DNA of 31,003 bases from Candidatus Thermosaccharophagus tengchongensis (GTDB lineage: Bacteria > Armatimonadota > Fervidibacteria > Fervidibacterales > Thermosaccharophagaceae). Location: NCBI GenBank assembly GCA_032161105.1, contig JAVHTD010000023.1. One strand, written 5' to 3'. The translations under genes and the position numbers were made by a program. Under the pieces are notes generated by a model. That model did no database searches. It was not told where the DNA came from and worked only from the letters and a program-made list of their open reading frames with translations. Positions 4,823-31,003 of this stretch are shown here, piece by piece (within the stretch, counting starts at the first letter, position 1; each line of letters starts with the position of its first letter).

Positions 4823-5518
4823 TCACCTTAGAGCGACCGAAACGGCGAGCACCGACAATGCAAAGCATGCCAGAATTAACCATTCAACCGGCTTGGGGCG
4901 CTCTGCGCTTAAAGACCTGAATTCGCCGTTGAAGCCGCGCGAGAGCATTGCCGTGAAGATTCTGTCAGCGCGCTCATGTGCGCGCAACAAGAGCGCTCCA
5001 ACGAGCATGCCGACATATCTTGCATCCTTCAAGGATAGCCTTCTTGGGCAGCGGCTTAAAAACGCCTGTTGCATGCGCCTTGCCTCCTCACCGAGCACAT
5101 AGGTATAGCGGTAAAGCAGCGCGAGCATCGTTACCATAAGGCTTGGCGTGCGCAGCATCCTCAACGCGCTCAGCAGCTCGGTGAATGGCGTCGTTAACGA
5201 GAGCCAAGTGGCAGCTGCAACGCAAAGTGTTGATTTGACGACAACTTGAATGAACCTCTCAACAGCCCCTCCGATGAGCAACCCGAGTGCGCACAGGATG
5301 ATAAACGGGACGATGGTAAGCAGCCTCTTAGCGAGAGCGCTTACTCTTACACCGCTGAGGGGAAGCAAAACCGCAATCAGAGCGCCAAGCGCAACCCATG
5401 CGGCGTATCCGCTTGCGGAAGATGCGAGCACGGCAACGATGTATGATAACGCCATCAGCAGTTTGATCTCGGCGTGAAGCCGTATCATGGGCTCTGCTGA
5501 AACACCGTTCACTGGCAT
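4823..5518 (-). CDS. ECF transporter transmembrane T component (EcfT, CbiQ/NikQ-like)
   Basis: Hydrophobic N-terminus; TTPFTELLSALRMLRTP, LLYRY...EEARRMQQAFLSR and RAHERADRIFTAMLSRGFNG (the two conserved xRx motifs). Confidence 0.92.
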   Translation of the reverse strand: MPVNGVSAEPMIRLHAEIKLLMALSYIVAVLASSASGYAAWVALGALIAVLLPLSGVRVSALAKRLLTIVPFIILCALGLLIGGAVERFIQVVVKSTLCVAAATWLSLTTPFTELLSALRMLRTPSLMVTMLALLYRYTYVLGEEARRMQQAFLSRCPRRLSLKDARYVGMLVGALLLRAHERADRIFTAMLSRGFNGEFRSLSAERPKPVEWLILACFALSVLAVSVALR

Positions 5519-11347: not shown

Positions 11348-12022
11348 TCACTTGTATGATGTGTCCCAGAACTTGCGCCAAATGTTTTCCGGCACAACAT
11401 GCACCTCGTTCTCTCCGGGCGGCGGGAGCGGATTGCCGTTTCCGTCCTCCTTCCATGTCGTGCTGTGAAATTGCTCTGGCTTCATCCATTTGACATGTCC
11501 GTCACCGAATAGAATGTTTGAGCCGTCATTGTGTATTCGGCAGACAGACCAAAAGCATGTTGAGCCACCATGGTATGCCCCAGTGGGTCCGTTAGGCGGT
11601 CCGGAGTTGCATCTATCCCACTCAACCGTGAGGATCTTATCAGCAGGGTTGGCAATCTGTGCCTCATGCCTTTCGGGAAAGCCGGGAGTGCCATCACAGC
11701 CGCTTATGCTTGATGGACATCCAAGATTGTATCCATGCCCATAATACCAAGGCAACTCTGGTCGGCTCGGGCATTTCCAAAGATCGCGGTTTTTCATGTA
11801 TGGGTCAAGGCGCGATTTCCACTGCGGGAACGGCGGGTAAACACCATCGTAGTCTGCCAGATACATCTGGAAGGCTAATCCATGTTGGCGCATGTTGCTT
11901 ATGCATGCACTTGCCCTCGCCTTCTCACGGGCACGGGCGAACACTGGGAACAGGATCGCCGCCAAGATGGCGATTATCGCTATAACGACCAAAAGCTCAA
12001 TCAGCGTGAATCCGCGGCGCAT
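11348..12022 (-). CDS. Prepilin-type N-terminal cleavage/methylation protein with C-terminal H-X9-DG motif (DUF1559-like)
   Basis: [36 protein letters not shown]...CISN; CPS motif; [29 protein letters not shown] before ATG 12022. Confidence 0.95.
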
Positions 12023-12023
12023 T

Positions 12024-13274
12024 TCAATGCACCTCCTTGCTTCCATCATCGGTCACAAAGAAAGTCAAGGTTGTTCTGGCATTGCCCTGTTGGCAAGCAA
12101 CCAACCAAACACCGGTTCGGTCAAGTTTGAGGTTCGCCAGACCGAAATCGGTCGTCATCAGTTTGATGGGAAATTCTTCGTTCTCTCCGGCAGGCTTTGC
12201 TTCGGGGTAAGTGGCGTAGATAATGGCGGGTGTGGGAAACCCCTCTGACATCACAAGAACAGGGGCAATTGAACCAATTTTCCGCCTTGCAGAACTGTCA
12301 AGCATCAGTAAGGAAAGCGATGGCGGTCGTCTCAAAGGGGTCATTGAAGGTTCCTCGACATCCACGAGCGCTAAACCCACCATCTGGAAGCCTTGGGCTT
12401 GATCTTGTTTCTCATCACCGAACAGCCTTCTGCTACCCACCACTGCATCAATGCCGAAGGAGAATGGCTTTATGTCAATGACTGGTGTTCCATCAAATGC
12501 ATCCAACCCTTTGACGAAGAGTGTGTTCCCTTTCCGCTCAAGCAATTCAACTATGCAAATACCGATCGGATTGGGTCGGCTGGGTGACCTCGTGGCAAAT
12601 ACGCCGAAGATCTCATCGCCCCAGGGAGTCCTTGATGCGAGGACATCGCGGCGTGCCCTGTCCAACCAATAAAGCACAATTAAGTGAGATGCATGCTCAA
12701 TTCCCCTGAGCGCCTCGGCAAACTCGTCTCGGATTTTAATTTGACAGATTTCATGCGAGTAGCGACCTTGATGAGGTGGTCGCTTGCCTTCGGGACTGTA
12801 GGGGGACGAAATGGCACCGATCGGGTAAACGGAGAAGCCCTCACCCTCCTTCACGGTGAGCGGTTTGATGAGCTGTTTCCACTCCTCCTGTTCCGCTCGC
12901 TTTTGGGGTGTTTCCTGCGGTTGTTGTGCTTGGCGGCGCCGCGCATAAAGCCAAGCATGGATGATATATGTTCCCTTTTGCTCTGCCACAAACTTACCCA
13001 CCCACTCCTTCGTCGCTTCGTCGGGGCTTAGCTCCACAGTAAAGGTTTGACCATTGGGCTTAACGATCTCCACAAACTGTTGAGCTGAAACCAGGATGTC
13101 GCTCTTTGGGAATTCATCACCGTGACCGAGTCCAATGCGGAAAGTGACGGTCTCGCCAACCTTTGGTTTGTAGTTATCAACCACCACCCAAAGGAAGTGC
13201 GAGCTGGCAAGATCAAAGCAAACAGCTGTTAAGGCTACACTGAGCAACATTTTGGTTGCGCTTTTCAGTTGCAT
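12024..13274 (-). CDS. Secreted DUF4198-like protein with an internal TsaA/TrmO-like SAM-binding domain
   Basis: Signal peptide ...[11 protein letters not shown]4198-like N-part ([27 protein letters not shown]); TsaA motifs at about 12447-12836 ([50 protein letters not shown]); DUF4198-like C-part ([19 protein letters not shown]...TTLTF). GAGGAGGTG RBS before ATG 13274. Confidence 0.85.
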
Positions 13275-13296
13275 CTCTTGATGCACCTCCTCTTGC

Positions 13297-13983
13297 TTAT
13301 TGGGGGTCATACCACCAGATCTCTGGTGGTTGCGCCGAGCAGATTTTGTCCTTACGCAGCGCCTTCACATGACCATCAATGAAGAGCGCACTCGCGCATT
13401 CAAAATGCCTGTCAGCCACATCTCCATCACAACTTGAGCGCCTCACAACATGTCCTGGGGAATCGCAAACCCACATGACTTCAGCGGGTCGGTCAATCCT
13501 GGCAAGAGGCGGTGGCGGGACAAGATCTGCATTGCCATTGGGAGCAATGACAAATCCGGAAACATTTCCATTGATGCCGTAAGAGACATAAGAGATTGCT
13601 TGTCCCATCATCATGCGTGACACTTCTTTTTGGCTCGGACACCAGAAGAGGTCTTCGTATTGGAAGACCGTCGTTCCAGACGGATCTGTTGTCCGCGTAT
13701 ATGTTCGGCTTGCGAGGTAAGGCTTAATCAATTCCTGCCAGCCGTAAGCACCGATTCGCCAAGCGCCTCGCTGAACATCCGGATACGACCAAGGCACAAG
13801 GCGTTCATCGTAGTCTTGGGAATACATTTGCAATGCCATTCCGATCTGCTTAAGGTTTGACGCGCATCGCGTTTTTCTCGCCGATTCTCGTGCCCTTGAT
13901 AGCACCGGAAGCAGCATCGCCGCCAAGATGGCGATTATCGCTATCACGACCAGAAGCTCAATCAGAGTGAATCCTCTCCTCAT
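13297..13983 (-). CDS. Prepilin-type N-terminal cleavage/methylation protein with C-terminal H-X9-DG motif (DUF1559-like)
   Basis: [36 protein letters not shown]...[44 protein letters not shown]. The frame stays open upstream to ATG 14187. Confidence 0.95.
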
Positions 13984-14204
13984 CTCAACACACCCCCTTC
14001 TGCATGCGCTCATCACCGACAATTCAACCGTTCGTTGTCCGGGGGCTCTTTTGAGCCGTGCGGCGCACAGATTTGCGTGTGGAGTTGTTGGGGCTTCATC
14101 TGGGGTAGGGTGATTCCCTTCCCCGAACAGCCTCACAGAGAGTGCACCATCAGCGCGTCCGCTCAACCATGCCCTCAAGCTCACCATTCAACTCCCCCTC
14201 CTCG

Positions 14205-14231
14205 CTATGACGAAATTAAAATTCGTAACAC
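14205..14231. promoter_or_regulatory. NikR-like operator candidate
   Basis: CTATGAC-GAAATTAAAATTC-GTAACAC (7-13-7, with inner ACGAA/TTCGT symmetry) closely resembles the E. coli nikA operator GTATGAC-N14-GTCATAC and sits just downstream of the predicted -10. Confidence 0.55.
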
Positions 14232-14289
14232 CACATCAGCAGTGTAGCGCGCTCCTCTCGGATGTAAAGTCAGCCTCGGTTTCAAAGCA
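14213..14289. repeat. Imperfect direct repeat, copy A
   Basis: First 29 nt match 19815-19843 at 27/29; shared GCTCC, ATGTAAAG and CAAAGCA blocks follow. Confidence 0.85.
14241..14268 (-). promoter_or_regulatory. Sigma70-type promoter candidate for the prepilin/TsaA-fusion operon
   Basis: Minus strand TTTACA-N16-TACACT. Confidence 0.5.
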
Positions 14290-25901: not shown

Positions 25902-26015
25902 GGAAAGTGGGATTGGCATAATGGTTGGCGGCGTTCATGTCAGGTTGCCCCGGCTTTGAGAGTTGATAGGTTGCGGAAATTGGGAGTCACTCCGAATTCA
26001 CCCGAGGTGATGGCT

Positions 26016-27857
26016 ATGAAGCAGACAGCCCTTGCGCTCATAGCTGTTTTTGCCATGACTTTGAGCAATTCCGCCGCGCAATATGGTAGACCAAAGAAGA
26101 AACTCATTCAATACGGGTGGGGTGTTCCTTATACGGACTTTGTTCGGGAAAATGCGAATGAAATGGAGAAGAATTGCCCATTCTTTGATGGGATCGTTAT
26201 AAGGCTGAGAGGTGGATGGAAGGCATATCCAGCCCATATTTTCCGAAAATCAGCCGCGACTTTGGAAGAATATGGGGCTGATATGGCAAACCTAAAAGCG
26301 ACAAAATTTGAAAGATTTAGGGAAAATTTCGCCCTCGCATGGGGGACGGCTGAAAAGGGATGGGATTGGTTTGATGAGAACGATTGGCGTGCTGCCGAGC
26401 AAAATGCCAGGTTAATTGCGCATGTGGCAAAAGTTGGCGGTTTAATCGGAATATGCTTTGATCCGGAGCCATATGGTGAAAATCCATGGCATTACCCAAG
26501 TTTGCCAAACGCGAAAACTAAATCATTTTCTGACTACTATGCCAGAGTTCGTGAATGCGGGGCAAACTTTATGAGAGTCATCCAAGATGAGTTCCCAAAT
26601 TTGCGCATTTTGACCTTCTTTTGGGGGAGCATTTTGGGTGATTTGGTTGATGTAGAAGACCAAAAAGAAGTCATGACTCGTCTTTCAAAGCATGGCTATG
26701 GGCTGCTCCCGGCATTCTTAAACGGGATGTTGGATGCGGTAAGCGGAAAAACCATCATAATTGACGGTAATGAGCCGGCATATTACTACCGCTCGCCGGA
26801 GCAATATTTTCGTGCATATCATTTGATGCGCCAGAGGGCATTGTCAATCATATCGCCAGAAAATAGGGAAAAATACGCAATTCATGTTCAAGCCGGATTT
26901 GCCCTCTACATGGACTTTTATTTTGGGCTCGTCCCTTTTGAAGTGAAATGGGGCAGATTGAGCCATTACTTAACACCGCAGGAAAGAGCAAAGTGGTTTG
27001 AGCATAATGTCTATTGGGCACTTTATACAACGGATGAATATGTTTGGTGTTACAGTGAGAGGCTTGACTGGTGGGGGACACAGGAAAAGGCAAAATGGTT
27101 CAAATTTGTCCCAGAAGGTGCCCCTGAAGCGATCCGGTCAGCTCGCAGGAAGCTTGACGAGTCAAAACCACTTGGTTTTGATATTCGTGATATGCTGCAA
27201 GCAGCTGAACAAAAAATGAGAGAAAAGCAAGCTAAATCATTGATACGGCGTGAGGCGAGGGTTCAAAAGCTGCAGCCGGGCGAAGAACCGCCAAAAATTG
27301 ATGGAAGGATAGACGACATTATCTGGCAGAACTTAAAGCCGTTGGAGGAATTTGTCATGAATTTGGAGAGCGCAAAAACCAAACCGTCGGTCAAAACAGT
27401 AGCTTGGCTGACCTACGATGACCGTTACCTTTATGTCGCTTTCCAGTGTGAGGAATTATTCCCAGAAAAGATGAAAATAGTCGGAGAAAAGCTGGATGAT
27501 GAGATTTGGCTCGGTGATTGTGTGGAGTTGCTGATCAGCTTGGGAGACTCGCCAAAACCTTATCGCCATTTCATAGTGAACCCCAGAAATGTCAAATGGG
27601 ATGGTGCATCTGTTGATGGAGGTGATGACCCGTCATGGAATGCAGATTGGAAAAGCGCCACATTTATTGGGAAAAACGCATGGACATGCGAAATGGCAAT
27701 ACCTTGGGAGTCAGTCGGGAAAATGCCTAAAGTCGGGGAAAAGAGGCGAGTAAACCTATGTAGGCAGAGATGTGTTGACGGAGTTGAGTGGACTACTTGG
27801 TCGCAAGTCATTGACGGGTTTCTTGAGGCAGAAAACTTCGGAGTTATTTGGTTTTAA
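26016..27857 (+). CDS. Secreted putative glycoside hydrolase-like barrel protein with C-terminal CBM9-like sugar-binding domain
   Basis: Signal peptide from ATG 26016 (GAGGTG RBS); GICFDPEPY (DxE) and IIDGNE in the N-domain; CBM9-like PKIDGRIDD..W, YDDRYLYVAF, DCVELLI and WTCEMAIPW. Confidence 0.8.
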   Translation: MKQTALALIAVFAMTLSNSAAQYGRPKKKLIQYGWGVPYTDFVRENANEMEKNCPFFDGIVIRLRGGWKAYPAHIFRKSAATLEEYGADMANLKATKFERFRENFALAWGTAEKGWDWFDENDWRAAEQNARLIAHVAKVGGLIGICFDPEPYGENPWHYPSLPNAKTKSFSDYYARVRECGANFMRVIQDEFPNLRILTFFWGSILGDLVDVEDQKEVMTRLSKHGYGLLPAFLNGMLDAVSGKTIIIDGNEPAYYYRSPEQYFRAYHLMRQRALSIISPENREKYAIHVQAGFALYMDFYFGLVPFEVKWGRLSHYLTPQERAKWFEHNVYWALYTTDEYVWCYSERLDWWGTQEKAKWFKFVPEGAPEAIRSARRKLDESKPLGFDIRDMLQAAEQKMREKQAKSLIRREARVQKLQPGEEPPKIDGRIDDIIWQNLKPLEEFVMNLESAKTKPSVKTVAWLTYDDRYLYVAFQCEELFPEKMKIVGEKLDDEIWLGDCVELLISLGDSPKPYRHFIVNPRNVKWDGASVDGGDDPSWNADWKSATFIGKNAWTCEMAIPWESVGKMPKVGEKRRVNLCRQRCVDGVEWTTWSQVIDGFLEAENFGVIWF

Positions 27858-27882
27858 ACGCCAAAGTCGGGGGTGAAAAATT

Positions 27883-30800
27883 ATGAGATTTTGTGGGATA
27901 ATTTTGCCAATATTTGCGGCGCTACCCTTGGCTTTGCCACTCCAATCCAAACGAATTATCACAAATAACAAATTGATTTTGGAAAACAAAATGGCAAAAA
28001 TTTTGATTGATGAATCATTGAAAGTTGTGTCAATCATTGATAAAAAGCATCGGAAAGAGATTTGCGCCGATGCGAAGCCATTTATGGCGTTAAAGGCGGG
28101 AGGAAGGGAATTTCTCCCACTTTCATGGGTATTTTCTGGAAAAGGCGGCGAGTTGGGTGTTGAATTTGAAAAAGCGAGGATAAAGGTGAAGATTGAGGCA
28201 AAGGACCAGTATTTTGTCATAAAAATTTCCGATTTTGTCGGGGACGCCGATGAAATAACATTCGCCAACTTATCCGTAAAATCTTCAAAATATGTGAGCC
28301 ACATGGTTGGAATGGCAGCAGATGATGAATTCGGCATCTGCGTTCGTGCGCTGAACTTGCAAACGAATGTTGTCGTGAGGGGAAAGCCAGCCATAATCTC
28401 GGCAAATTGTTCCAAAAAATATGGGTTTGTTGGTGCCGGCATCGTATTGGTTGCAGCGCCAACGCAGCAAATCAGGGATGTGTTGAAGAAAGTTGTGAAA
28501 AATGAGGGCTTAATTCACTCGCAGCTTGGGGGTCCTTTTGCGCTTGATGCTAAGGAGAACAAGCTTTCGTATATATTCGCAACTGTCGGTGAACAAAATG
28601 TAGATGATTGGATTGCAATTGCTAAAATGTCTGGCATTGGTATCATTCATCTTATTGGTTGGGAGAGGTCTTTGGGGCATTATGAGCCAAGAAAAGACCT
28701 GTTTCCCAATGGTATGCTGGGGCTGAAAAAAGTTGTGGAAAAAATTCACAAAGCTGGCTTAAAAGCTGGATTGCATACGCTGACTGGCTGCATATCCCCT
28801 CATGACCCATATGTGACGCCTATCCCCGACAAAAGATTGGCAAAAAGGAGAACATTTACTCTTGCGAAAGAAATCAGCGAGAAAGACGATGTGATTTATG
28901 TTGAGGAACGACCGGAGGATATGGACACAATCTGGGCATATGCGAGTAAAGGAAATGTATTGCAAATTGGAGATGAACTTGTGCAATATTCCGGATATTC
29001 TCAGGAAATGCCTCATAGATTTTGGGGGTGCAAAAGAGGCGCTTTCGGGACGAAACCTTCACCACATCCATCCGGATCAAAAGTGCACTATCTTTATGCA
29101 TACTATGGCACTTTTTATCCAGAAGAGGATTCGGATCTTGTTGACGAAATTGCCCAAAGAATTGCCGATGTGGTGAATGAGTGTGAATTTGACATGATTT
29201 ATCAAGACGGTGCCGAAGGTATGCCCGGTGGATGGTATGGAATATCAAAAATGCGGAGAGAAATTGTCAAAAGATTCAAAAGACCGGTTAGGGTTGAAGC
29301 CAGTGAATGGGGCTATCATTCTTGGACATTTCATTCATGCATCGGAGCGTGGGATCACCCGTGTTGGGGCTTAAAACGCTTTGTGGATATACATTGCCAA
29401 GATTTGGAAAAATACGAGAAATTTCATCTTTTGCCAGGGCAACTTGGATGGTGGGTGATTCTTGGTCCGACCGAAAATTACGATGCAGAAACACCCGACG
29501 AAATGGAGTATCTTTGTTGTAAAGCCTTGGGCTACAATGTGCCCATCTCATTGCAAGGTGTAAGTGTGAGCAATCGTCCTTGGAATCTTCGTCAAGACGA
29601 ATACCTGATAATGTTAGGGCGCTATGAGAGGCTCCGCCTCGCCAATTACTTTTCGGAGGATGTGAAGGCTAAGTTAAGGGAATTTGGCAAAGAATTTAGG
29701 CTTGTTCAGGCTGAGGATGGTATGTGGGAGTTCTTGCCCACAAAGTATGTCACTCAAAAAGTCACAGATATGGCGGAAAGTGCCAAATTAGTCATAAATA
29801 ACCCATTTGATAAGCAATATGCCAAGTTTAGAATACAAGCACTCTACTCTGCAGCGCCGTATGATGCCCCCGAAAGCGTTGTGTTGACAGATTTCTCAGA
29901 AAATAGCGGATTTAAGGTAACTGGCACTGCAGAGGGGGTAACCTGTGAATTTAAGCCAATTCCGGAGCAATCAAAATTTGGCGGAGTATGTGGCTATATT
30001 TCCGCAAAAAATATTGGTGCCCCTCAAAATGGGGCATGGGTAAGAATAACAAGGGCATTTCTTCCACCGATTGACATGCGCAAATATGGAGCACTCGGAG
30101 TGTGGATTTATGGCGATGGTAAAGGGGAAGTGATCAATTTTCAACTTAGAGATATGCCACAATATTATCATGGCACTTATGATGACCATTATGTTGATGT
30201 GAATTTTGTTGGTTGGAAGTATTTTGAGCTGCTTTTGCGGGAAAGAGACGCAGAAAGGCATGTTGATTTTGTCTGGCCATACTTTGGAATTTATCAGATT
30301 TATCGTTCGCCGTTGGTTAAGCATGCGATTAACGAGTTAAACATTTATGTTAATAATGTGCCCCCAAACAGCTCCATAACTTGTTATATTTCTCCAATAA
30401 AGCTATTGCCAGTGAGAAAACTCAAATTTTCCGGTCCGAGTGTGTCAATTAATGGGGCGAAAATAGAGTTTCCAGCAATGATTGAAAGCGGGCAATACAT
30501 TGAGTTTGAATCAATGTCAAATTGCAGGCATTACAGAGAAAATGGGGAATTGATTGGTTACATCACGCCGCACGGCACGCTCCCCATGCTAAATCATGGC
30601 GAAAATATGGCTATTTTTTCCTGTAAGCCCGAAGGGAATGGGAAAGTGAGAGCAAAAATAACCTTCATTTGCACAAGTAAGCCAATAAGAGGTATGTCTT
30701 CAAAAAGAAACATCAATTGGGAAATATTGCGCATGGAGTATGACGATCCACGCATTATTTGCGCCTTGGATGGCAAGCAAAATGAATGGGATTTAATCTG

Positions 30801-31003
30801 CAGGCGTGATGTGAAAAAAGCTGCATTGGCATTTGAACTGATCGTTAATAAAGTTGAAGGAAAGGTCAAGAAATTGGGGAATTTTTCCATTTCAGTAAAT
30901 GGTCAAAAGATGCTATTTCCCGTGACGCTAACGGTGGGTGATAAGTTAGTGTATAGGTCGCCCCACGAGTGCGCGATTCGGACTAAGGATGGAGAAAAAC
31001 CGA
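27883..31003 (+). CDS. Partial (>1040 aa) secreted clan GH-D-like (GH27/31/36-like) glycoside hydrolase with CBM11/CIA30-like domain; runs off the window
   Basis: Not in the ORF track. I read it from ATG 27883 (GGGGGTGA RBS) and saw no stop to the window end. MRFCGIILPIFAALPLA signal; LFPNGMLGLKKVVEKIHKAGLKAGLH; FDMIYQDG (29188-29211); IGAWD; LGVWIYGDGKGEVINFQL...VNFVGWKYFEL. Confidence 0.85.
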   Translation, partial: MRFCGIILPIFAALPLALPLQSKRIITNNKLILENKMAKILIDESLKVVSIIDKKHRKEICADAKPFMALKAGGREFLPLSWVFSGKGGELGVEFEKARIKVKIEAKDQYFVIKISDFVGDADEITFANLSVKSSKYVSHMVGMAADDEFGICVRALNLQTNVVVRGKPAIISANCSKKYGFVGAGIVLVAAPTQQIRDVLKKVVKNEGLIHSQLGGPFALDAKENKLSYIFATVGEQNVDDWIAIAKMSGIGIIHLIGWERSLGHYEPRKDLFPNGMLGLKKVVEKIHKAGLKAGLHTLTGCISPHDPYVTPIPDKRLAKRRTFTLAKEISEKDDVIYVEERPEDMDTIWAYASKGNVLQIGDELVQYSGYSQEMPHRFWGCKRGAFGTKPSPHPSGSKVHYLYAYYGTFYPEEDSDLVDEIAQRIADVVNECEFDMIYQDGAEGMPGGWYGISKMRREIVKRFKRPVRVEASEWGYHSWTFHSCIGAWDHPCWGLKRFVDIHCQDLEKYEKFHLLPGQLGWWVILGPTENYDAETPDEMEYLCCKALGYNVPISLQGVSVSNRPWNLRQDEYLIMLGRYERLRLANYFSEDVKAKLREFGKEFRLVQAEDGMWEFLPTKYVTQKVTDMAESAKLVINNPFDKQYAKFRIQALYSAAPYDAPESVVLTDFSENSGFKVTGTAEGVTCEFKPIPEQSKFGGVCGYISAKNIGAPQNGAWVRITRAFLPPIDMRKYGALGVWIYGDGKGEVINFQLRDMPQYYHGTYDDHYVDVNFVGWKYFELLLRERDAERHVDFVWPYFGIYQIYRSPLVKHAINELNIYVNNVPPNSSITCYISPIKLLPVRKLKFSGPSVSINGAKIEFPAMIESGQYIEFESMSNCRHYRENGELIGYITPHGTLPMLNHGENMAIFSCKPEGNGKVRAKITFICTSKPIRGMSSKRNINWEILRMEYDDPRIICALDGKQNEWDLICRRDVKKAALAFELIVNKVEGKVKKLGNFSISVNGQKMLFPVTLTVGDKLVYRSPHECAIRTKDGEKP

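Follow-up and report, generated by a model that had tools for sequence, protein, structure and literature searches.

The gene described here unites two protein families, DUF4198 (PF10670) and TrmO_N (PF01980), whose folds are both known from solved structures. For DUF4198, PMC12537917 reports that 79% of the proteins start with histidine after cleavage of the signal peptide, and that IsDUF4198 (NikK) of Ideonella sakaiensis binds nickel with a Kd of 18 nM, the metal being held in the crystal structure (PDB 9GCB) by the N-terminal His1 and by His18, with water and malonate at the open positions. In another member, the zinc capture protein Zcp of Neisseria gonorrhoeae, loop 108-125 is disordered and is called the largest and most flexible loop by the authors (PMC12663993). 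On the side of TrmO_N, a Gln, Arg82, Asp111 and Lys122' of AF0241 from Archaeoglobus fulgidus touch S-adenosylmethionine (AdoMet), and the Escherichia coli equivalents of these residues are needed for activity; the C-terminal DPRxxY motif is needed by E. coli TrmO to form N6-methyl-N6-threonylcarbamoyladenosine (m6t6A), archaeal homologues are devoid of it and m6t6A was never detected in archaeal tRNA, according to PMC4132733, where the role of the many archaeal YaeB/TrmO paralogues is left open. Here, we analyze a stretch of 31,003 nucleotides (the window) from contig JAVHTD010000023.1 of the assembly GCA_032161105.1, Candidatus Thermosaccharophagus tengchongensis, in which a single gene on the minus strand (12024-13274) appears to encode an exported protein with a TrmO_N barrel nested inside a DUF4198 sandwich.

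The open reading frame (ORF) of this gene, the middle one of three, is open over 12024-13310 on the minus strand (428 amino acids), and its likely product of 416 amino acids starts from the ATG at 13274, which has GGAGGTG 9 nt upstream and brings the protein into agreement with the length of its homologues (407-427 amino acids, mostly 409-416). Residues are numbered below along the 428-amino acid ORF, so that the signal peptide corresponds to residues 13-37. By sequence and by predicted structure, the protein is a signal peptide followed by a whole three-layer DUF4198 beta-sandwich that carries a whole TrmO_N barrel in one of its loops, with the following parts:

13200..13274, minus strand: signal peptide (residues 13-37), recognized from the ribosome-binding site, the start codon, and the conserved core and A-x-A/H position (the slash marks the predicted cut); cleavage predicted after A-S-S.
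12939..13199, minus strand: N-terminal half of DUF4198 (residues 38-124), with His38 and with His63 of the GHG motif; Pfam, hhalign, fold match, and a ratio of nonsynonymous to synonymous substitution rates (dN/dS) of 0.03-0.18.
12837..12938, minus strand: linker 1 (residues 125-158), rich in Q, E, K, R and P; identity 0.51, with 4/34 columns invariant.
12441..12836, minus strand: TrmO_N/TsaA-like AdoMet-binding barrel (residues 159-290) of the AF0241 type; PF01980, TIGR00104 and PDB 2nv4.
12390..12440, minus strand: linker 2 (residues 291-307); identity 0.45, with 1/17 columns invariant.
12024..12389, minus strand: C-terminal half of DUF4198 (residues 308-428) and stop codon; Pfam profile positions 139-206, hhalign, and fold match to Zcp and 9GCB.

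The two families were recognized in a Pfam scan, where DUF4198 matches residues 35-140, corresponding to profile positions 1-101 of 209, and TrmO_N matches residues 179-288 (E 1.7e-32). Over the whole protein the DUF4198 score is 45.7 bits against a cut-off of 34 (E 1.1e-11), and the C-terminal piece scanned alone matches profile positions 139-206 of the same family (E 0.0033). The NCBIfam model TIGR00104 covers residues 160-290 with 144 bits, its cut-off being 93. When the fusion family was aligned with 12 ordinary, that is uninterrupted, DUF4198 proteins using hhalign (probability 99.8, E 6e-29), both DUF4198 halves were aligned and the barrel appeared as one large insertion, the C-terminal half being matched from the strand after the variable loop through to the end of the family profile. 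A domain within a domain had been proposed in a first-pass annotation made from the letters alone, and the split DUF4198 matches obtained around TrmO_N by Pfam, hhalign and fold comparison bear this out; the gene start that it used (13274) is the likely one, the intact TsaA domain that it placed at 12447-12836 corresponds exactly to residues 159-288, and the two linkers that it described are both real and poorly conserved.

The AlphaFold model that we used was computed from an alignment of the family with 110 short barrels and reaches a mean predicted local distance difference test score (pLDDT) of 75.9 and a predicted template modeling score (pTM) of 0.54. Only the two linkers and the tail fall below a pLDDT of 50, at model residues 88-96 and 110-112 for linker 1, in which a helix is predicted at 99-110, and at model residues 253-269 for linker 2. 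An earlier model, from a 17-sequence alignment of the family, was discarded (mean pLDDT 50.7, pTM 0.38). Alignments to which ordinary DUF4198 proteins had been added, either whole or halved at the insertion point, were excluded from folding because MAFFT misplaced these proteins onto barrel columns.

The best structural match of the model in VIA-align is Zcp (9MHJ; Z 22.0, 206/246 residues, model range 1-384). The match to IsDUF4198/NikK (9GCB) extends over model residues 1-383 (Z 17.4, 182/213 residues, 17% identity), with model residue 1 falling on residue 1 of the nickel-bound chain, and the match to AF0241 (2NV4) covers model residues 122-255 (Z 17.2, 130/133 residues, 48% identity). Compared with 2NV4, 3OKX, 7BU1 and 1XQB, the barrel fold scores Z 12.5-17.2. 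The top families in Foldseek are the same as those of VIA-align; only weak DUF4198 look-alikes (score 0.76) were found in the ESM Atlas, and a search of the PDB with a narrow profile of the N-terminal half gave no useful match.

The insertion point lies between a strand ending in G-x-Y-x-hydrophobic and the next strand, A-K-A, with which the fusion resumes. Exactly at this position ordinary DUF4198 proteins vary by ~35 residues, and in Zcp it corresponds to loop 108-125, just ahead of the strand that bears the zinc ligand H142. The barrel thus takes the place of a loop that varies by nature among DUF4198 proteins and lies near the region where metal is bound.

We then considered whether the gene could be an artefact, either of chimeric assembly or as a decaying pseudogene. 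In Logan, 4 runs, every one from a different study, have one contig that spans the window from 12367 or 12442 to 13925 with 2-4 letters of difference. The piece includes the N-terminal half of DUF4198, then linker 1 and the complete barrel, and extends 68 nt past the barrel in 3/4 runs. The contigs, like the organism, come from hot springs. A protein search returned 1306 matches, the best 120 of which were examined for their architecture, and among these 120 we found 17 protein clusters, 59-100% identical, that carry both Pfam families; they originate from NCBI, JGI, ENA and Logan. The reading frame is open in 5/5 related loci examined, and all folded parts are under purifying selection (see below). 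Nothing was found in favor of an artefact, and this explanation is excluded. The contigs of the 4 independent runs carry both domain junctions in one piece, which also settles the misassembly that the first-pass annotation had named as a possible refutation.

The fusion family is, on the sequences searched, a narrow one. The source names of its clusters point to Armatimonadota and Candidatus Fervidibacter(ota), and full-length matches occur in 6 of 301 genomes sampled across the phylum, all 6 from the window's own order, which contributes 24 genomes to the sample; one more genome of this order has a terminal fragment, and outside the order only the barrel part is matched in these 301 genomes. 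A search for the same architecture in other genomes, as suggested at first pass, has led to 17 clusters that all belong to the window's own order (Fervidibacter group). An exhaustive HMMER search with the N-terminal half against 1.84 billion representatives retrieved one family representative (E 5.7e-44), next to which came ordinary uninserted DUF4198 proteins (E 1e-10 to 1e-3) and Ig-repeat giants, and a word-based search with the same half retrieved family members only (10 proteins). No second inserted DUF4198 architecture was seen among the 11/62 matches of the N-half search that were checked. The window belongs to a metagenome-assembled genome of 44 contigs, 97%-complete, in which the fusion gene is the sole match to TrmO_N as well as the sole match to DUF4198.

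Several conserved features indicate that the protein is exported and that its mature form begins with a histidine. A basic n-region precedes a hydrophobic core, of which the strongest stretch is an 11-mer, and A-N-A, A-S-A or A-S-S is found directly ahead of an invariant histidine in 15/15 aligned sequences. Identity over the signal region averages only 37%; what is conserved is the position of the core and of A-x-A/H. Judged from these features, cleavage would expose His38. Both His38 and His63, the latter within a GHG or GHE motif, are invariant in the 15/15 sequences, and the GH motif of the fusion aligns with that of ordinary DUF4198 members; the first-pass proposals of an export signal with a mature N-terminal histidine (A-S-S/H) and of a GHG motif are supported by these sequences. 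A lipoprotein was considered and rejected, as the cysteine of the signal peptide is not conserved and there is no lipobox; an internal translation start giving a cytoplasmic barrel was also rejected, as no conserved internal start codon precedes the barrel.

We searched the fusion for the zinc triad H29/H31/H142 of Zcp and observed no histidine at any of the three equivalent positions; where Zcp has the segment leading up to its H142-bearing strand, the fusion has the insert. Since the N-terminal His and the GH His are kept and the zinc triad of Zcp is absent, the fusion is best placed with the nickel-type DUF4198 members. The protein would then have kept a nickel-type site composed of a cleavage-exposed His and a second conserved His, both cleavage and metal binding being predictions from sequence. 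By analogy with characterized members, the metal of the sandwich is most likely nickel, cobalt or zinc being possible.

The barrel is the best conserved part of the protein. Its mean pairwise identity is 0.86, with 84/132 columns invariant and a dN/dS of 0.03-0.06, compared to mean identities of 0.73 and 0.63 for the two DUF4198 halves, over which dN/dS is 0.03-0.22, and of 0.45-0.51 for the linkers. Mapped through the AF0241 alignment, the residues expected to contact AdoMet are Q181, R241, D270 and K281, which correspond to Gln25, Arg92, Asp125 and Lys136 of E. coli TrmO, all present in the fusion. These four residues are invariant in 17/17 family members; among the short relatives, Q181, R241 and K281 are found in 110/110 and D270 in 109/110. 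Because the four contact residues are invariant, a ligand pocket is retained. Eleven further residues of the barrel are invariant in the family yet rare in its relatives, for instance H186, R177, P178 and Q190 around the loop beside Q181.

By sequence, this barrel belongs to the short, archaeal AF0241 type. It matches the sequence of PDB 2nv4 (AF0241) over residues 162-290 (E 2e-37), the fusion gave no match to TrmO_C (PF18389) at E ≤ 1, and no DPRxxY occurs in the family alignment. The nearest 120 stand-alone barrels are 132-173 amino acids long and 51-63% identical, with names that include Dictyoglomus, Geoglobus, Archaeoglobales and Thermococcus. In a barrel tree of 140 rows and 137 columns, which comes from a quick search and is uncertain in its deeper branches, a single clade unites the 18 fusion sequences, with a support of 100 in the Shimodaira–Hasegawa-like approximate likelihood ratio test (SH-aLRT). 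The sister group (SH-aLRT 80) is made of FmdE-fused, two OsmC-fused and stand-alone methanogen forms, and the free-standing TrmO-like genes of Armatimonadota, one of which comes from the same order, are placed elsewhere. Note that two public records of the family (P0005 and P0007) are named tRNA (N6-threonylcarbamoyladenosine(37)-N6)-methyltransferase TrmO. Family members receive this name because the barrel alone exceeds the equivalog cut-off of TIGR00104; the database label "TrmO tRNA methyltransferase" is probably wrong, and the naming probably a systematic misannotation.

Several relatives of the barrel are linked to metals. FmdE is paired with the barrel in 23 of the 103 non-family matches among the best 120 of 1306, and the FmdE-fused proteins are the closest barrel sequences among the matches listed, with 55-61% identity. 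The N-terminal domain of FmdE binds zinc or nickel through FHGHxC, as described in PMC2954224, and this motif is present in the FmdE fusions that we fetched. One match has the barrel fused through a His-rich linker to a cation-diffusion-facilitator transporter, and the pair P0075 and P0112 together show the barrel joined to this transporter and to the C-terminus of a major facilitator superfamily transporter; such transporter-fused barrels suggest a ligand-sensing role in those proteins. Near the nearest stand-alone barrels of methanogens (10 loci), the neighbors are Mrp/NUBPL-type ATPases in 5, aldehyde:ferredoxin oxidoreductase in 3 and FmdE in 1. The Methanomicrobia genomes concerned (L016-L025) have 1-7 short TrmO-like paralogues each, the FmdE locus also has a zinc-finger gene, and a Cas4-like nuclease gene adjoins the best-matching barrel copy in 3/10 loci.

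The fusion gene stands between two pseudopilin genes, the three minus-strand genes running head to tail as DUF1559 (13297-13983), fusion (12024-13274) and DUF1559/H-X9-DG (11348-12022). The flanking genes and the sites found upstream are:

13297..13983, minus strand: upstream prepilin-type DUF1559 (H-X9-DG-like) pseudopilin gene, 228 amino acids; Pfam N_methyl and SBP_bac_10/DUF1559, NCBIfam prepilin cleavage/methylation.
11348..12022, minus strand: downstream prepilin-type DUF1559/H-X9-DG pseudopilin gene; Pfam and TIGR04294 H-X9-DG.
14241..14268, minus strand: promoter-like site TTTACA-16-TACACT; 9/12 matches in a consensus scan, as a pattern match only.
14209..14227, no strand: operator-like inverted repeat CACGAA/TTCGTG with a 7-nt A+T spacer and 2 arm mismatches, directly downstream of the −10-like hexamer; upstream alignment.

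The downstream pilin starts 2 nt past the stop codon of the fusion, and its ribosome-binding site lies within the last codons of the fusion gene. The upstream pilin is kept in 5/5 related loci (79-89% identical) and the downstream pilin in 4/5 (68-87% identical), the latter not being found in L007 with the window query. A similar arrangement is seen around ordinary DUF4198 genes of other Armatimonadota: in the 16 loci with uninterrupted genes that we examined (L009-L014 and L037-L046), a same-strand prepilin-type gene is present within 1.8 kb in 13, upstream in 12 and downstream only in 1. Since ordinary DUF4198 genes of the phylum show the same pairing, the barrel was added to a protein that already belonged to a module of pseudopilins and DUF4198. 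A pairing of DUF4198 with DUF1559 was not found in the searched literature on either family, in which no paper names both.

The inverted repeat is exact in L003 and L004, where it lies 56-58 nt ahead of the first pilin gene; the copy in L005 has 2 mismatches and precedes an additional pilin gene that comes first there, and the variants in L006 and L007 are degenerate. No copy is present in the 16 loci with ordinary DUF4198 genes. The own genome of the window contains 7 other matches with ≤2 mismatches, of which 3 were examined, and none of these 3 lies at a promoter position. No Zur-type box was identified upstream, where this different palindrome is present instead. An alternative ORF of the upstream pilin (296 amino acids) reaches 14187, that is 68 codons beyond the 228-amino acid start (window 13984-14187), across the promoter and operator region; this extension is not conserved in L003, L005, L006 and L007 and is probably untranslated, which would leave a leader of ~225 nt.

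Apart from the cassette, the depth of metagenome contigs rises 10- to 30-fold at 11918-12012 and 13913-14007, which encode the prepilin N-terminal helix; these jumps are attributed to a large paralogous family, of which the N-terminal motif is found 37 times in a six-frame translation of the own genome. A CbiQ/EcfT-like gene is located at 4826-5518 on the minus strand, in a different transcription unit, with no CbiM, CbiN or CbiO among the scanned ORFs of the window. Over the last 5 kb (26001-31003), which hold a CBM9-containing ORF of 633 amino acids and an open-ended ORF of 1040 amino acids without Pfam match, the G+C content drops from ~0.52 to 0.41-0.46, and this stretch may be acquired DNA.

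We propose that the gene product is a binding protein with two sites, probably a dimer, which is exported by Sec and would work extracytoplasmically within a cassette of three genes that includes the two pseudopilins. We give this reading a probability of about one half. Cleavage of the signal peptide would create a new N-terminal His which, together with the His of the GH motif, would form a three-nitrogen site as in IsDUF4198/NikK, and the sandwich would capture a divalent transition metal. As the AF0241-type pocket is kept, including the lysine that comes from the second subunit, the barrel would dimerize and bind a small molecule with an alpha-amino-carboxylate group, holding it in the way AF0241 holds the amino-acid end of AdoMet; candidate ligands are AdoMet, a breakdown product of it, or a metal chelator that is AdoMet-derived or of amino-acid type. 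The pocket is probably tethered close to the metal cleft, since the insertion takes the place of the flexible loop of Zcp and His142 is on the strand just after it, and the protein may recognize or assemble a metal-chelator complex rather than the bare ion. The fusion would act together with its two flanking DUF1559 pseudopilins, as the ordinary DUF4198 proteins of the phylum appear to do, and the cassette would be under the control of a cassette-specific repressor site.

A number of observations weigh against this proposal. The first-pass annotation had linked the protein to Ni/Co energy-coupling factor (ECF) loci, a link that is not seen at this locus: the neighbors are the two DUF1559 genes, the fusion gene has no gene for a Ni/Co transporter, a TonB receptor or NikR next to it, the CbiM of the genome is on another contig (contig 17) and the CbiQ-like gene is 6.5 kb off. 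Note that the association of DUF4198 with Ni/Co ECF, TonB or NikR genes, absent here, is frequent and not strictly defining. A demand for nickel, which would favor the proposal, is indicated by a [NiFe]-hydrogenase large subunit encoded in the own genome; within the order, however, [NiFe]-hydrogenase does not clearly track the fusion (3/6 holders versus 3/18 non-holders, all of them related genomes). Searching the 97%-complete genome for the nicotianamine-synthase family was negative, and no metallophore biosynthesis gene was found in it. AdoMet is not known to occur as a metabolite in the periplasm, and a protein exported by Sec cannot bring it along through the membrane. None of the 120 nearest stand-alone barrels has a signal-peptide-like N-terminus, so that the exported setting is a recent one for what had been a domain of the cytoplasm. 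No nickel transporter was found within 1.5 kb of the nearest stand-alone barrels in the 10 methanogen loci; for this reason, the theme of the barrel clade is better described as the handling of metals or metalloclusters than as specifically nickel, and in the searched literature we found no link of TrmO or YaeB with nickel beyond incidental mentions. Finally, the relative placement of the metal site and the pocket is deduced solely from the insertion point, in a model whose linkers have a pLDDT below 50 and whose pTM is 0.54.

The main rival of the two-site binding protein is a purely structural barrel, which would provide a stable dimer or a spacer in place of a floppy loop and bind no ligand, the protein being then a metal buffer like Zcp. 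Both parents are homodimers, namely Zcp (PMC12663993) and the TrmO-type barrels (PMC4132733), the insertion takes the place of a loop that is disordered in Zcp, and the hot-spring habitat would fit a stabilizing role. A dimerization scaffold would need no intact ligand tetrad, whereas the four AdoMet-contact residues are invariant, and purifying selection acts more strongly on the barrel than on its host (dN/dS 0.03-0.06 versus 0.03-0.22); on this basis we consider the structural explanation unlikely. In a second rival, the barrel would be an active AdoMet-dependent methyltransferase that works outside the cytoplasm and modifies something other than tRNA, for example a pilin, another part of the envelope or a small molecule. 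The intact AdoMet pocket speaks for it, and the eleven family-specific invariant residues, among them those around the loop beside Q181, would fit a changed substrate. The cassette, however, includes no AdoMet exporter or related gene, and its genomic context suggests no methyl acceptor. AdoMet is heat-labile, the habitat consists of hot springs, and we know of no source of AdoMet outside the cytoplasm. Such an enzyme is in our view decidedly improbable.

An ordinary function in tRNA modification is the explanation that the database names imply: the protein would be a cytoplasmic TrmO acting on t6A37 of tRNA, and its hydrophobic N-terminus would not be a working signal peptide. The score with TIGR00104 (144 versus 93 bits), the two homologues named TrmO by NCBI and the position of the gene as sole TrmO_N match of a 97%-complete genome speak for it. 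Nevertheless, the protein has neither the TrmO_C domain nor the DPRxxY motif that are both required in E. coli (PMC4132733), its barrel clusters with that of the short archaeal proteins, away from the free-standing TrmO-like genes of Armatimonadota, and the gene is found in only 6/24 genomes of its own order. In addition, the host family DUF4198 is periplasmic wherever it has been studied, the conserved A-x-A/H position and the N-terminal His make sense only after export, and no conserved internal start would yield a cytoplasmic barrel. Because of its export signal, the barrel would have no access to tRNA. The first-pass suggestion that it cannot serve tRNA is strengthened by its assignment to the AF0241 type, which comes without the DPRxxY domain and is common in archaea, where m6t6A was never detected according to PMC4132733. 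From its sequence, the fusion protein is no tRNA methyltransferase, and a cytoplasmic TrmO is very improbable.

The two-site binding protein can be extended to a more specific and rather unlikely proposal, in which AF0241-type barrels in general would not be RNA methyltransferases but receptors or handlers of an aminocarboxylate metal chelator; in the present case the receptor would have been exported in a loop beside a nickel-type site, and a complex of metal and chelator, captured by both sites jointly, would be passed to an uptake device made of the flanking DUF1559 pseudopilins. Equally tentative are the candidate chelators, which could be AdoMet-derived, nicotianamine-like or an amino-acid complex such as Ni-histidine. 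If this were true, two groups would gain a function, namely the orphan barrels, a large family in archaea and anaerobes, and the DUF1559 pseudopilins, whose families are very large.

Both domain families and their folds are already known; new here are the nesting of one within the other, the exported setting of a strongly constrained AdoMet barrel and the pairing with pseudopilins. None of these three was found in the searched literature, which gave no description either of an exported TrmO, TsaA, UPF0066 or YaeB-like form. The family offers a clear example from nature in which an AdoMet-binding fold of the cytoplasm appears to have been relocated outside the cell while remaining under strong selection and keeping an intact pocket. 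Two readings are at hand: these thermophiles have a use for AdoMet-like ligands beyond the cytoplasm, or methyl transfer was never the task of the pocket in this clade. The physical joining of the barrel to a family with a characterized nickel site, when its nearest relatives are joined to FmdE, makes the identity of the pocket's chelator or metabolite, and its cooperation with the metal site, testable questions, and provides a new clue and a concrete experimental handle on the role of the orphan barrel family. The phylum-wide pairing of DUF4198 with DUF1559 gives an initial clue to what the DUF1559 families do, and the equivalog naming of these proteins as TrmO by NCBI is very probably an annotation error.

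Compared with the described systems, the fusion is closest on its DUF4198 side to IsDUF4198/NikK of I. sakaiensis (9GCB), with which it shares (PMC12537917) a signal peptide, a mature N-terminal His, a second His, the same sandwich and PF10670. The equivalence of His63 with His18 of 9GCB is taken from the family motif rather than from a residue-level superposition. Unlike IsDUF4198/NikK, the fusion has a 132-residue AdoMet-type barrel and two linkers in place of a surface loop, and its neighbors are pseudopilin genes, those for a TonB receptor, NikR or an ECF transporter being absent from the vicinity. Zcp of N. gonorrhoeae (9MHI-9MHO; PMC12663993) is likewise an exported DUF4198 protein and has loop 108-125 at the insertion site of the fusion; it is itself a homodimer, and the fusion is without its H29/H31/H142, having instead the N-terminal His and the GH motif that are absent from Zcp.

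On its barrel side, the fusion resembles AF0241 of A. fulgidus (2NV4), a UPF0066/TsaA-like protein crystallized with endogenous AdoMet, which makes the same four contacts and also has no C-terminal domain; AF0241 is free-standing, with 147 amino acids and no export signal, whereas the barrel of the fusion is exported, nested, and distinguished by its eleven family-specific invariant residues. TrmO (YaeB/TsaA) of E. coli, a class VIII AdoMet methyltransferase (PMC4132733), has a homologous N-terminal barrel with the AdoMet residues, from which the database name of the fusion derives, but the fusion is without the DPRxxY domain, has an export signal and branches away from bacterial TrmO-type sequences. 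The FmdE-TrmO_N-zinc-ribbon fusions of thermophilic archaea and anaerobes (PF02663 and PF01980), which belong to the sister clade, likewise join the barrel to a metal-binding domain; they are cytoplasmic and built end to end with a different partner fold, in contrast to the fusion described here, in which the barrel is nested within its metal-binding partner and exported with it.

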